Made by a program: the position numbers and the translations under genes. A stretch of 64,000 nt of DNA, from positions 1-64,000 of the forward strand of contig CAVUWV010000027.1 of assembly GCA_963745075.1 (NCBI GenBank), written 5' to 3'. Shown piece by piece: positions 55,518 to 61,573 of this stretch (position 1 is its first letter; the number at the start of each line of letters is the position of its first letter). The notes beneath the pieces are model-generated. The model was not told the origin of the DNA. It worked only from the letters and a program-made list of their open reading frames with translations, and did not search any database. The stretch is from Candidatus Hydrogenedentota bacterium (lineage in GTDB: Bacteria; Hydrogenedentota; Hydrogenedentia; Hydrogenedentales; SLHB01).

Positions 55518-55796
55518 ATGAATATCTACGTTGGGAACCTGTCGTACCAGGCTACGGAGGATGAGTTGCGGGACGCCTTCGCCGCCCACGGCGACGTAAC
55601 GTCCGTCAACGTCATCGTGGACCGGATGACCGGGCAGTCCAGGGGGTTTGCCTTCGTCGAGATGGCCACCAAAGAAGCGGGAAAAGCCGCTATTGAGGCC
55701 CTCAACGGTTTCGAACTTCAAGGCCGCCCACTCCGGATTAACGAGGCGCGCCCTCGCGAAGAACGTCCCCGGCGCGAAGCGCGTCCGCGGGGCTAA
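55518..55796 (+). CDS. RRM-domain RNA-binding protein
   Basis: RNP2 IYVGNL, RNP1 [17 protein letters not shown]. Confidence 0.95.
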
Positions 55797-55856: not shown

Positions 55857-56735
55857 CTAAAGATATAGTCGAGTCAATTCGTCTCGGACATACTCGAACG
55901 CCGAATCTACGTCGTCGGCGAGATGGAAGAGATCCAAATCCGAGCGACCAATCATTCCCCACTTCACCAGGGCGTCGAAGTTGATGACCTCTTTCCAGAA
56001 CTCCTTGCCGAACAGCACGACCGGCATCATCTTTGCCGTCTTGTTTGTCTGAATGAGGGTCAGCAGCTCGAACAATTCGTCGAAGGTTCCGAACCCGCCG
56101 GGAAAGACGATCAATGCCTTGGATAGATAGACGAACCAGAATTTTCGGATGAAGAAATAGTGGAACTCGAAGGAGAGTTCACGCGTCTGGTACGGGTTCG
56201 GGTTCTGTTCGAAGGGTAAGCTGATGTTCAGCCCGATGGAGTACCCCCCGGCCTGCGCGGCGCCCCGGTTCGCGGCTTCCATGATACCCGGACCGCCGCC
56301 CGAGCATACGATGAAACGCCGTTTCCTGCCGGGGATCGCTTTCGACCAACTCGTCAAACGCTCGGCGAGTTCCATCGCATCGTCGTAGTATCGCGCCATG
56401 TGACGGGCGTGACGAGCCCGGTCCAACGCTTTCTGCGCCGCCTTCGGAATCTGCTTGTTTGCGTTGGTCGCAGCCTTGGCGGCTTCGTATTCCGCCTGCG
56501 CCGTCCCGCTGGACACAATGCGCGCCGAACCGAAGAAGACAATCGTGTCCTTCACACGCATGCGCCGGAAGCGACTTTCCGGTTCCATGAATTCGCACAA
56601 GACCCGGATCTCGCGGGCGTCGCTACTGTTCAGGAAGTTCAGATTCTTATACGCCTTTTCCGGCCACCGTCCCCCCGGCACACCGGAGACATTGTTGACG
56701 TGGTTCTTGCTTGCGTTTCCGGTATTCTTGGCCAC
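55857..56735 (-). CDS. LOG family nucleotide 5'-monophosphate phosphoribohydrolase
   Basis: FFGSAR, SGGGPGIMEAANRGA, LPFEQNPN, FHYFFIRK, PGGFGTFDE. Confidence 0.92.
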   Translation of the reverse strand: MAKNTGNASKNHVNNVSGVPGGRWPEKAYKNLNFLNSSDAREIRVLCEFMEPESRFRRMRVKDTIVFFGSARIVSSGTAQAEYEAAKAATNANKQIPKAAQKALDRARHARHMARYYDDAMELAERLTSWSKAIPGRKRRFIVCSGGGPGIMEAANRGAAQAGGYSIGLNISLPFEQNPNPYQTRELSFEFHYFFIRKFWFVYLSKALIVFPGGFGTFDELFELLTLIQTNKTAKMMPVVLFGKEFWKEVINFDALVKWGMIGRSDLDLFHLADDVDSAFEYVRDELTRLYL

Positions 56736-56845: not shown

Positions 56846-57664
56846 TCACCCGCCGGTATGGTCCTTCAAGAATGCGAGCGTACGCGGCCAGGCGTCTTGA
56901 CTCGCCTTGAGATTTGCGCCGTCTCGTCCGTCCTGTTGTCGCAGGAAGCCGTGGCCCGCGCCCGCATAGATCGCCTTCTCGTAAGGCTTGCCGAGTCGCT
57001 TCAATTCCTCTTCCGCAGGAGCGATGGTGGATACGACGCGTTCGTCCATCTCGCCGTACAGGCCCAGTACCGGCACGGAGAGCTTCGCAAGCGACGCAGC
57101 ATCCGGCGAAGTCCCGTAATACACGACCGCCGCGTCGAGTTTCGGCTGGGCCGTTGCGTAGCGGAAATTGGTGGTCCCACCCCAACAGAATCCAATCGCC
57201 GCACACTTGCCGTTCGCCGCCGGTAGATTGAGGCCATAGTCGAGGGCGGCATTCAGTCGTGCGACGGCCTCCGGGGGTTCGAGGCGTCCGATCGTTTCGC
57301 GCGGATTCTCTTCCGCGCCTTCCATACCGGAGATCAGATCCGGTGCAACTGCGATATACCCATTCGCTGCCAGCGCGTCGGCTACCGACCGAATCCAATC
57401 CGACATGCCGAAGATCTCGTGAATCACGACGATCACCGGCGCCTTATCCGAACGCTCCGGGTACGAGATCCACGTTCGCAATTTCACGTCGCTGTTCGGG
57501 AGCGGAATGAACGCAAACTCGCCATGGCGCGGCGAGTTCTCTAACGCCTCCTTTGCGGCGTCGCCGGATGGCGGCAACGTAGCGTCTTGGGCTATGGCCG
57601 AAACCGGGAGGGCCGTGAGGGTAACCGCCGTGAATAACAACCATGACCAGCGCGAACGAATCAT
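56846..57664 (-). CDS. Exported dienelactone hydrolase family protein
   Basis: Signal peptide; IHEIFG, APDL, GFCWGG, GAGHGF. Confidence 0.92.
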   Translation of the reverse strand: MIRSRWSWLLFTAVTLTALPVSAIAQDATLPPSGDAAKEALENSPRHGEFAFIPLPNSDVKLRTWISYPERSDKAPVIVVIHEIFGMSDWIRSVADALAANGYIAVAPDLISGMEGAEENPRETIGRLEPPEAVARLNAALDYGLNLPAANGKCAAIGFCWGGTTNFRYATAQPKLDAAVVYYGTSPDAASLAKLSVPVLGLYGEMDERVVSTIAPAEEELKRLGKPYEKAIYAGAGHGFLRQQDGRDGANLKASQDAWPRTLAFLKDHTGG

Positions 57665-57833
57665 GTTTTCCTCCTTTCCTGGAGTCTACGGCAAGGGAGA
57701 AACCGCGTTGGAAAATGCCGCGAACGATCTCCCCGTGCAAAACGTAAACACGGTACCCAACCTGGATTAATCCATCGCCTTTCGAGCACACCTGAAAACT
57801 CATTTAGTCCCGAAAAATAAAGGTGAAAACGTC

Positions 57834-57862
57834 TTGACAGATTTCCGACTCGGGGGTACAAT
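57834..57862 (+). promoter_or_regulatory. Near-consensus sigma70 promoter
   Basis: TTGACA(57834-57839)-17 bp-TACAAT(57857-57862), with an A-rich UP-like tract upstream. Confidence 0.75.
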
Positions 57863-57871
57863 CAGAGTGTA

Positions 57872-57995
57872 GCGCGGTTCGCCGATCGTACCTGACGGCC
57901 ACGGCGGGCCCTGGCGCGCACGTTGCGCAACACGGTGAAATACCCGAGCCGGGGACTCAGGCGCCTGACGGACGGGTATGAGCGGCGAACCGCGT
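57872..57995 (+). ncRNA. Candidate ~124-nt structured RNA of unassigned family
   Basis: Starts at the expected TSS; perfect 12-bp closing stem plus 9-bp stem, internal multibranch junction, T-loop-like GGTGAAATACC; followed by a U-rich tract. Confidence 0.55.
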
Positions 57996-58086
57996 GTTCT
58001 TTGTTTTCCCTCCGTCCCCTAAGTCCATTGCTTGCCCATCCCTCCGGCTGCTACCATTCCCGTTTACACCACCGAAAGGCTCATCC

Positions 58087-59145
58087 ATGAAAGTCGGGAT
58101 TATTGGCTACACCCGGTCGGGCAAGACCACCATCTTTAATTCGTTGACCGGCGCTCATGCCGCCGTCGGAACCTTTGGCAGCCGGGATTCCAATGTTGCC
58201 GTGCTCAAAGTGCCCGATGAGCGTGTGGATCGACTTGCCGAAATTCATAAACCCAAGAAGAAAACCTACGCCGAGTTCCAGTTCGTCGACATTGCGCCCA
58301 ACGAGTCCGGCGGCGACGACAAAGCCCTCGATTCGGCGGCCCTGACCGCGCTGAAAAATGTTGACGCGCTGGTTCACGTAGTCCGGGCGTTCCAAAATGA
58401 AGACGTCATGCATCCGCTCGGCGATGTGGATCCCGTACGCGACGCACGCAGCCTCGAAGAAGAATTGCAGCTCTGCGATCTCATTATTATCGAACGCCGC
58501 ATCGAACGTATGGAAAAGGAAAACCGCAAAGACAACGAATACAAAACGCTGATCCAATGTCGCGAGCACATCGAGAATGGACAGTCTTTGCGGACTCTGG
58601 ACCTTTCCGCACAAGAAGCGCGCGACATCGCGGGCTACTGTTTCCTCTCGCAAAAGCCACTTCTGTTGTTGGGCAACTATGGCGATGAATCCATCGGCAA
58701 CCCGGACCCGGCCGGGCTCGATGCGTTTGGGAAAGAACACAAACTAACCGTCATCGCTTTCTGCGGCGCCATGGAGATGGAAGTGGCACAACTGTCGGAA
58801 GAAGAGCGGCCCGCGTTTCGCGAAGACTTGGGATTGGGCGAGGAATCCCGCACACAGTTTTTGCAGACCGCCTACGACATGCTTGGCTTGATGAGTTTTC
58901 TGACCGCAGGCGAACCCGAAGTGCGCGCGTGGACCATTCCCAAGCACACCAAGGCGGTCGATGCCGCGGCCGTGATTCACTCCGACATTGCGCGCGGATT
59001 CATTCGCGCCGAAATCGTCAACTACGACCATTTCATGGCCGCCGGTTCCATGGCCAAGGCCAAGGAAGCTGGTCACGTTCGCCTTGAAGGCAAGGAATAC
59101 ATCATGCAGGACGGCGATATCGTTCTGTTCCGGTTCAACGTGTGA
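58087..59145 (+). CDS. ychF: YchF/Ola1-family P-loop NTPase (divergent G motifs)
   Basis: VPDERVDRL, DALVHVVRAF, FLTAGEPEVRAWT, IHSDIARGFIRAE, RLEGKEYIMQDGDIVLFRFNV. Confidence 0.9.
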   Translation: MKVGIIGYTRSGKTTIFNSLTGAHAAVGTFGSRDSNVAVLKVPDERVDRLAEIHKPKKKTYAEFQFVDIAPNESGGDDKALDSAALTALKNVDALVHVVRAFQNEDVMHPLGDVDPVRDARSLEEELQLCDLIIIERRIERMEKENRKDNEYKTLIQCREHIENGQSLRTLDLSAQEARDIAGYCFLSQKPLLLLGNYGDESIGNPDPAGLDAFGKEHKLTVIAFCGAMEMEVAQLSEEERPAFREDLGLGEESRTQFLQTAYDMLGLMSFLTAGEPEVRAWTIPKHTKAVDAAAVIHSDIARGFIRAEIVNYDHFMAAGSMAKAKEAGHVRLEGKEYIMQDGDIVLFRFNV

Positions 59146-60157: not shown

Positions 60158-60253
60158 GGGCGACCCGTACGCCGCCTGAAGTCCAAGCCCGTTCGAATTA
60201 ACTCGGCGCGGAACTTGTGATGCTTCTGTATGTCCACGGGCGCGAGGATAACC

Positions 60254-61573
60254 ATGCAACATCGCAGGACATGTCTTGCCGGAGCAATACTGGCGGCTGT
60301 CTGCCTGTCCGGTTGTCCGAATCACGCGGATCCCATCGTCCACGCGTTGCACTACCTGGAGCGGACGCAGCTTTCCACTGCAGACGAGGCCCGTCTCAGC
60401 GGAACCCCCATCATCAACTATGCTGGAAACTGGCCGCAGGTATTCTATTTCCGCGGTGCGCCCCGTGTCCGTTTCCCCGAAGTGAGTCCGTTCATCGTGG
60501 GATTCATTCATCATGCCCTCGCCGACGTGAAGGAAAGCACGGTCGACGCCCTCGGTTTGGACCCGTCCGATGCCGAAGTGGCGAGAACCATGCGGCAACG
60601 AGCGGTGTCGTTCTTGAAACGTTTTGAATCGGATTCGGCGGATCCCGACGCCGGAACGTTCGGATTCTGGCCCTACGACCCGAACCCCGGCGCTCCGGAA
60701 TCGCCGCTCCAACAAATCGCCCTTGGCATATTGCAGGGACCCATTCTCGACGGAAACCGTGTGCCCGCGAACGTGCGAATCTATCCACACGCCCTCGGCA
60801 TTCCATCCGACGCCGATGTCACCGCCACCACGTACGCGGCGTTGCTCGACGACGCGATACTCGACGGCGGCCCCGGAACGGCTCAGCCGGTGGCACAGTT
60901 CTTCGCCGATTGGCGTGATACGGGCGCCGTGCCGTTGCGCCGCGATCCGGCCTGGCTTCCCACAAACAGCGGCGCCTACCTGACCTGGCTCGCGTACCAC
61001 GATCCCCCGGATCTCACGATACCGAACGACGTGGATCTCGTGGTCAACGCCAACGTGCTCTATGCACTGGCCCGTTTCGGCGAATCCAGCGCCCCGGGGG
61101 TTACGGAGTCCGTCGATCTCATCAATACCGTCGTTCAGCAAGGACTCCACCGCACGCAATTCAGCCAACTCACGGACTACTATCCCGACAGCTACGTTTT
61201 TCACTACTGCGTGTCGCGTGCGTTCCGCGAAGGACCCATTCCCACCCTCCTGCCGGCAGTGACCATCCTCGCCGGCGACCTCGTAAACGAGGCAATTCCC
61301 CTGCCGGGCGGCACGGTTTATTGGGATAAAGGCGATCCGGCGCTCAACACCGCTTTCGCAGTATTGACCCTCATGAACGCAGACGCAGATCCAGACCTCG
61401 TTGAGAGGGGAATCCAATACCTCGTCAAGACGCAGAATCCCGTCGACGGCGGCTGGCCGGAAGCGGTGTTCTTTCTGGCCCACACCGATGGAGGGCCCGA
61501 AGTACGATGGTCCTCCGGCGCATTGACAACCGCACTCGCCCTGGAGGCGCTTTGCCGGTATCGGTTGGAATGA
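60254..61573 (+). CDS. Lipoprotein with terpene cyclase/prenyltransferase-like alpha-barrel
   Basis: Lipobox LSGC; GTFGFW; PSDADVTA; VDLVVNANVLYAL; QW-like YLVKTQNPVDGGW. Confidence 0.6.
   Translation: MQHRRTCLAGAILAAVCLSGCPNHADPIVHALHYLERTQLSTADEARLSGTPIINYAGNWPQVFYFRGAPRVRFPEVSPFIVGFIHHALADVKESTVDALGLDPSDAEVARTMRQRAVSFLKRFESDSADPDAGTFGFWPYDPNPGAPESPLQQIALGILQGPILDGNRVPANVRIYPHALGIPSDADVTATTYAALLDDAILDGGPGTAQPVAQFFADWRDTGAVPLRRDPAWLPTNSGAYLTWLAYHDPPDLTIPNDVDLVVNANVLYALARFGESSAPGVTESVDLINTVVQQGLHRTQFSQLTDYYPDSYVFHYCVSRAFREGPIPTLLPAVTILAGDLVNEAIPLPGGTVYWDKGDPALNTAFAVLTLMNADADPDLVERGIQYLVKTQNPVDGGWPEAVFFLAHTDGGPEVRWSSGALTTALALEALCRYRLE

Follow-up and report, generated by a model that had tools for sequence, protein, structure and literature searches.

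Between a hydrolase gene and ychF, the window (the whole 64,000-nt stretch of DNA that we analysed) carries a sigma-70-type promoter followed by a predicted structured RNA of ~125 nt. The features that matter for this account are listed below in window coordinates.

55518..55796, + strand: gene for an RRM RNA-binding protein (Rbp; NF058537 above cut-off), part of a shared gene cluster and a candidate partner only
55857..56735, − strand: TIGR00730-like gene (LOG-type Rossmann fold; 95.7 bits, cut-off 96.35)
56846..57664, − strand: hydrolase gene; best match the YghX family, below cut-off
57834..57862, + strand: sigma-70-type promoter of the RNA; −35 TTGACA at 57834-57839, −10 TACAAT at 57857-57862
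57869..58007, + strand: predicted RNA, with both putative ends placed from the fold and homologues; closed core 57872-57995
57872..57894, + strand: closing stem P1, 5' strand; the most conserved part (90% identity between genera)
57895..57908, + strand: central segment, 5' side, with the P2 5' strand at 57903-57906; variable in sequence, 16-18 nt in all copies
57909..57954, + strand: Y-shaped head; P3 (57909-57914 with 57949-57954), P4 hairpin (57916-57928) and P5 hairpin (57933-57946)
57955..57972, + strand: 3' side of the central segment, holding the P2 3' strand (57962-57965) or, alternatively, a hairpin (57957-57968)
57973..57995, + strand: P1 3' strand, which can also fold as a terminator-type hairpin
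57995..58007, + strand: U-rich tract and putative 3' end; 10 T within 15 nt after the stem
58028..58057, + strand: separate ychF promoter, outside the RNA; −35-like element 58028-58033, extended −10 element 58049-58057
58087..59145, + strand: ychF (TIGR00092 above cut-off), the downstream neighbour in genus g1 only

A preliminary description of this DNA had named the promoter, TTGACA-17-TACAAT, and a U-rich tract after the final stem, and both are present as claimed. The promoter matches the consensus at 11 of 12 positions around its 17-nt spacer. It is the sole promoter-like site within 57000-59000, but shuffles average 0.8 such sites, so a lone match is not significant by itself. We accept it as real because it is conserved across copies. 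TTGAC stands 37-39 nt ahead of the closing stem in 12 of 12 copies examined, and the hexamer after the 17-nt spacer is TACAAT in seven of them, TATATA in three, and TATAAT and TAGAAT in one each. Genome-wide, there are 23 TTGACA-17-TAnAAT sites, a set that includes this promoter and that of the rRNA operon. At the other end, the tract after the stem holds at least six T in 11 of the 12 copies.

Fold and conservation of the RNA

The minimum free energy fold of 57868-58010 reaches −73.4 kcal/mol (z −3.48), and none of 200 shuffles was equally stable. Three homologues fold with z of −4.2 to −5.0. Every helix named in the preliminary description is found in this fold, and a common architecture is present in all 12 copies examined: a closing stem of 22 bp and, carried on a stem of 5-6 bp, a head of two hairpins, within a core of 122-133 nt. 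The central segment pairs as P2 in genus g11 and as either P2 or two small hairpins in g1, the genus of the source genome, to which the alternative hairpin at 57957-57968 is confined. Two details noted earlier proved to be local. The T-loop-like loop is present here but is not conserved, occurring only in the source genome and three close relatives; likewise, the 8-mer CCTGACGG does appear twice, at 57891-57898 and 57964-57971, but in no other aligned homologue. Inspection of the copies by eye found no conserved small ORF or loop-loop pairing among them.

Comparative support comes from an alignment (A8) of 10 distinct rows, from which L063, L065, and L212 were omitted as near-duplicates. In this alignment, which was fitted to the structure model and whose rows form two related groups, so that independence is overstated and independent compensatory events are few, pairing is kept in 93.1% of 392 cells, and both partners have changed in 10 of 40 pairs. 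Its covariation score was reached by 0 of 500 shuffles, and slid controls pair at 28-45%. Within P1, 95% of cells are paired, with the central pair mismatched in 7 of 10 rows. The alignment puts three g1 rows in a second P3 register; a manual count in the better register finds the 5-bp core of P3 and the 4-bp core of P4 paired in all 10 rows, with one compensatory change each. The P5 hairpin also forms in all 10, and its sequence differs among subgroups.

Sequence conservation is unevenly spread over these elements. Identity between genera is 0.90 in the P1 5' strand, 0.74 in the P1 3' strand, and 0.61 in P3-P4, and it is 0.26-0.38 in the central and P5 segments. As a comparison level, four-fold sites of ychF are 0.41-0.44 identical between genera. 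Conservation of the P1 5' strand exceeds what pairing needs. Because the helices are conserved and the loops are not, the pattern suits recognition by shape or by a protein more than it suits a pairing seed.

In each of 11 copies, the P1 3' strand can instead form a hairpin with itself immediately ahead of the U tract, at −6.8 to −13.5 kcal/mol, with 90% of cells paired and one both-sided change. This hairpin is clearly better than dinucleotide shuffles in only 3 of the 11 copies and is weakest in the source genome (−6.8 kcal/mol, z +0.33). It and P1 are mutually exclusive, and both end at one U tract. Folds restricted to a 75-nt span are 8-25 kcal/mol less stable than the full rod. The 3' hairpin is likely an intrinsic terminator, which in this folding model would give way to the more stable rod.

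With its own promoter, a covarying structure, and no conserved downstream gene, the element has the general properties of a stand-alone structured bacterial ncRNA. The reading of the locus as a stand-alone ncRNA gene has thus held up, and we are confident that such a gene is real. The RNA is probably abundant and under selection, since its promoter is of the rRNA class and has been kept through genome rearrangement.

Distribution and neighbouring genes

A blastn search over 61 genomes matched five same-genus (g1) genomes at E ≤ 1.4e-18. The covariance model R1, built from the six g1 sequences, found four further copies in 133 genomes of the order, all in genus g11 (E 6e-6 to 2e-9). Two weaker R1 matches in the order were without a promoter and looked like coding sequence. 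In a pattern scan of metagenomes, 3 of 18 stretches were true copies, one of them identical to L071 in the RNA. Detection was reciprocal: model R2, built from the g11 and metagenome copies only, recovers all six g1 copies with genome-wide E of 1.7e-7 to 7.8e-10. A joint model, R3, places the RNA in 10 of 135 genomes of the phylum, representing 2 of 66 genera, at one locus each. In each genome, the model searches scored between 23 and 150 out of thousands of first-look candidates, and diverged copies may therefore have escaped them.

The ychF tree joins the carriers to a g8 genome, with support of 93/88 from a bootstrap that had not settled completely, and the RNA was not found by model searches in three g8 genomes nested among the carriers. 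As far as sequence comparison goes, this absence implies loss or divergence, with the RNA either dispensable or too diverged to detect in g8. One g11 genome without a match (G127) is 87% complete and in 700 contigs. Weak model matches in g8, G127, and other genomes were without a promoter and looked like coding sequence.

Other phyla were covered by a pattern scan that gave at least 120 matching stretches. Scoring 80 of these with R1 returned short generic hairpins only, and the best of the 80 (E 0.0019) lay away from the pattern site. A filter over the at least 120 stretches passed four, none with the conserved core among the matches listed. Judging from sequence, the RNA may still occur beyond the phylum. 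None of four stretches from a viral pattern scan was a true copy, and blastn against phage and plasmid collections gave one partial chance-level match in each. A separate observation concerns genome G034, where a near-perfect ~125-bp inverted repeat lies downstream of the LOG-like gene (L232:2440-2564) and matches the model on both strands, by structure alone.

The LOG-like gene is the divergent neighbour of the RNA in both genera. An older context of RRM gene, LOG-like gene, and divergent RNA is shared by G001, G002, G126, G062, and L217, and some g1 genomes (G000, G004, and G005) share it with the hydrolase gene sitting between the RNA and the LOG-like gene. G015, G068, and L214 have other neighbours and retain the RNA promoter. 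The RRM gene lies beside the LOG-like gene at 7 of 8 g1 and g11 loci vs. 0 of 22 loci of other genera, some of them cut short; the RNA was not found at these 22 LOG loci, several of which are cut by contig ends. Of 54 family genomes, 43 encode RRM proteins, and the copy near the RNA forms a g1 and g11 clade (97/94). We therefore rejected the RRM neighbour as independent evidence, as its position is explained by shared ancestry.

Several other observations were made in and around this neighbourhood. The source genome encodes four short RRM proteins, one in the window (55518-55796) and the others on contigs C17 and C24, with two in tandem. At g4 loci, a strong promoter divergent from the LOG-like gene is followed by a structured element, which we set aside as an L20 ribosomal-protein leader; RF00558, whose gathering score is 58.7, matches more weakly than that at L240:2710-2849 and L247:2601-2740 (50.7 and 44.9 bits). 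A small protein gene follows the RNA at two loci of the g11 type (L071, 1800-2210 on the RNA strand, and L217:1968-2306), and its product presumably resembles an SCP2 sterol-binding domain. Further along the window, positions 60230-61573 encode a 447-aa protein whose C-terminal part weakly matches squalene cyclase models (E about 1e-5, well short of the cut-off). A 116-aa ORF without an NCBIfam match opens the segment 61780-64000, and we take this ORF and the sequence after it to resemble the start of a V/A-type ATPase operon.

Relation to known RNAs and mode of action

The preliminary description could not match the RNA to known families, and our searches agree. A scan against Rfam 15 (4227 families) returned nothing at gathering level in the 64-kb window and nothing at E ≤ 10 in 57600-58200, and six homologue loci gave no Rfam match on the RNA at E ≤ 1. 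ARAGORN and Rfam identified no tRNA or tmRNA in the window. The source genome, which is 89.7% complete, carries 6S (C21, 61.7 bits), SRP (C8, 60.4 bits), and RNase P RNAs above cut-off as well as tmRNA (C10), all on other contigs. With these housekeeping RNAs accounted for elsewhere, the RNA is no diverged stand-in for one of them. It shares its size and irregular rod shape with small SRP RNA (RF00169), but it does not match that model at E ≤ 10, its head is branched, and the true SRP gene is the one on C8. A parallel may also be drawn with orphan motifs such as the raiA motif/ModT (PMC11706538), which are likewise clade-restricted, covarying, stand-alone, and without an assigned partner; by comparison, our RNA has a far narrower range (2 genera) and no Rfam 15 match. 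A literature search, composed mostly of titles and abstract openings, turned up no description of the RNA, and the main text of 10.64898/2026.10.21.760802 makes no mention of ychF, Y RNA, three-way or tRNA-like. We consider the RNA a candidate new family among stand-alone structured bacterial RNAs, outside the 6S, Y, SRP, and tRNA families.

The reading that we favour, at slightly short of an even chance, is that of a stable, structured RNA with a transcription unit of its own, which would work in trans through protein binding, either as scaffold or as decoy. Behind it stand the conserved promoter, the conserved fold, the single copy, and the independence from the downstream gene. Helices held at a fixed distance, variable loops, the lack of a conserved downstream gene, and the failure of our searches to detect an antisense target together point to a trans-acting RNA recognised by protein through its shape and the P1 5' strand. 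Under this proposal, RNA polymerase with the primary sigma factor would start near 57869, and the 3' strand would fold locally into its hairpin before the U tract and end transcription. The released RNA would then settle into the stabler rod, composed of the 22-bp P1, an irregular central helix, and the Y-shaped head. A protein would read P1, chiefly its 5' strand and mismatches, and the same protein would also read the stacked P3-P4 helices, a fixed 16-18 nt from P1, leaving the loops and central segment to serve as spacers. The neighbouring RRM protein is the first candidate partner, which we offer as a lead and not as evidence of binding.

The main rival is an RNA-polymerase decoy, that is, a short second polymerase-binding RNA working like 6S, in which P1 would correspond to downstream DNA, the centre to the open bubble, and the head to a shortened upstream arm. 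Like 6S RNA (RF00013), Ms1, CoRP, and scr0792, the RNA has a stand-alone gene with a strong promoter, and its two ends pair in a long imperfect stem; like 6S and other polymerase-binding RNAs, it has two helical blocks around what may be a looser centre, and a branched tip. These two conserved blocks flank a variable segment of 16-18 nt, near the 14-16 nt of the 5' bubble strand in the family's 6S RNAs. CoRP and the ~85-nt scr0792 are precedents for lineage-restricted polymerase binders, and ~160 nt is among the shortest 6S lengths known (accessible text of PMC11077062). In vitro, truncated Bacillus subtilis 6S-1 RNAs of 78-82 nt remain functional, binding holoenzyme about 10-fold more weakly and templating pRNA (PMC8876501, from the part available). 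However, the RNA is ~125 nt long vs. about 160-200 nt for 6S, and it has no RF00013 match at E ≤ 10, nor do six homologue loci at E ≤ 1. Conversely, R3 does not match six 6S loci of the family, and all six carriers tested have a 6S gene in addition to the RNA. The 5' strand of the centre has a G+C content of 0.50-0.88 vs. 0.27-0.40 in the family's 6S RNAs and is predicted to be largely paired; predicted folds close the bubble of some true 6S RNAs too. The upstream arm would be very short, with about 10 bp and a hairpin beyond the centre. The earlier suggestion of a short 6S-like RNA therefore survives as a possible way of working, not as membership of the family, and we judge even the former unlikely. 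Somewhat more doubtful is a specific version in which a second, miniature decoy of ~125 nt, with a branched head and no −35-like arm, would operate beside canonical 6S. Its P1 3' strand would double as the terminator, and once P1 was unwound, as pRNA synthesis might do, the 3' hairpin would form and release the enzyme. Between these two decoy readings in likelihood we place a pairing or switch RNA, in which P1 would open into a 5' hairpin and a 3' terminator-type hairpin and the invariant 57878-57884 loop would pair with a target. Both P1 strands are indeed self-complementary (94% and 90% of cells paired), the invariant segment forms the loop of the 5' hairpin, the central P1 mismatch described above recurs across rows, and the nascent 5' end of the g1 RNAs is able to pair with their central segment. 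Yet the switch hairpins are no better than shuffles (z −1.0 to +0.6 for the 5' hairpin and −0.9 to +1.0 for the nascent fold), and the nascent helix of g1 is not retained in g11. Pairing of the 5' strand with rRNA, tmRNA, SRP, and 6S was no better than that of shuffles, and a BLAST search for an antisense target gave no genomic match better than E 0.64. Complements of 15-mers in five carriers yielded 29 sites among the matches listed, six of which are the RNA itself.

The remaining readings are less probable still. A DNA-level element beside a promoter, such as an operator, recombination site, or mobile-element relic, would involve no functional RNA and would suit an imperfect inverted repeat of about 125 bp, a narrow distribution, and conservation concentrated just after the start site. 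We think it very unlikely: there is a single copy per genome, one-sided changes keep G-U pairs at 7 of 21 P1 pairs, the model scores the promoter strand at 134.8 bits vs. 29.3 for the reverse, and the phage, plasmid, and viral collections showed no related match. Below even this ranks a Y RNA that has lost Ro60, whether orphan or derived. The RNA does resemble bacterial Y RNAs (Yrn1, YrlA RF02553) in its size, its multibranch head, and its long terminal stem, whose 5' strand is better conserved, as at Ro60 sites (PMC4201824, accessible part), and one YrlA of the family shares eight terminal-stem letters with it. According to that paper, Y RNAs bear a motif, GNCGAAN0-1G, near the 5' end; here, five of the six letters of GNCGAA are found in 9 of 10 rows, but the full motif in 0 of 10. 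The Y-RNA-like or tRNA-mimic identity proposed earlier is already largely refuted, because a TROVE/Ro60 search found none in the 10 carrier genomes (72-99% complete), although Y RNA genomes should encode Ro60, mostly no more than 4 kb away, the T-loop is not conserved, and the RNA has neither T arm nor D arm. TROVE is present in 3 of 54 family genomes, all of them non-carriers; genuine YrlA-type RNAs, complete with T and D arms, sit at these three TROVE loci and are not matched by R3. RF02553 matches the family's Ro60 loci but neither the RNA nor its homologue loci, and local alignment to the RNA array of G067 equals that of shuffles, 28 of 200 of which scored as high as the best. Least probable of all is a cis-acting leader or attenuator of ychF, the other identity put forward in the preliminary description. 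In all six g1 genomes, ychF follows the RNA at a distance of 80-90 nt on the same strand, and a terminator-type hairpin is possible, but ychF is preceded, past the RNA, by an extended −10 element of its own at 22 of 30 family loci, compared with 0 of 201 control windows. In a synteny search, the RNA was also absent from 26 of the 30 ychF loci, and not one of the four g11 genome copies sits upstream of ychF. In that genus, a different gene follows the RNA, and in L068 and L070 it runs convergently.

Within a small phylum, the locus offers a comparatively supported candidate for a new RNA family that Rfam 15 does not contain. Binding to RNA polymerase would make the RNA a natural minimal 6S-type RNA, and binding to another protein would define a new ribonucleoprotein. 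Its importance is tempered by its narrow range of 2 of 66 genera.

The search for Ro60 also brought to light RNAs of another kind. Beside the family's three Ro60 genes lie YrlA-like RNAs, at L270:2252-2360, L269:536-672, and L268:2735-2837, each below the gathering score. At L270, one promoter precedes three tandem units that share a 9-letter motif, and only the last of these matches YrlA. On this sequence likeness, the first two units are candidates for further Y RNAs.
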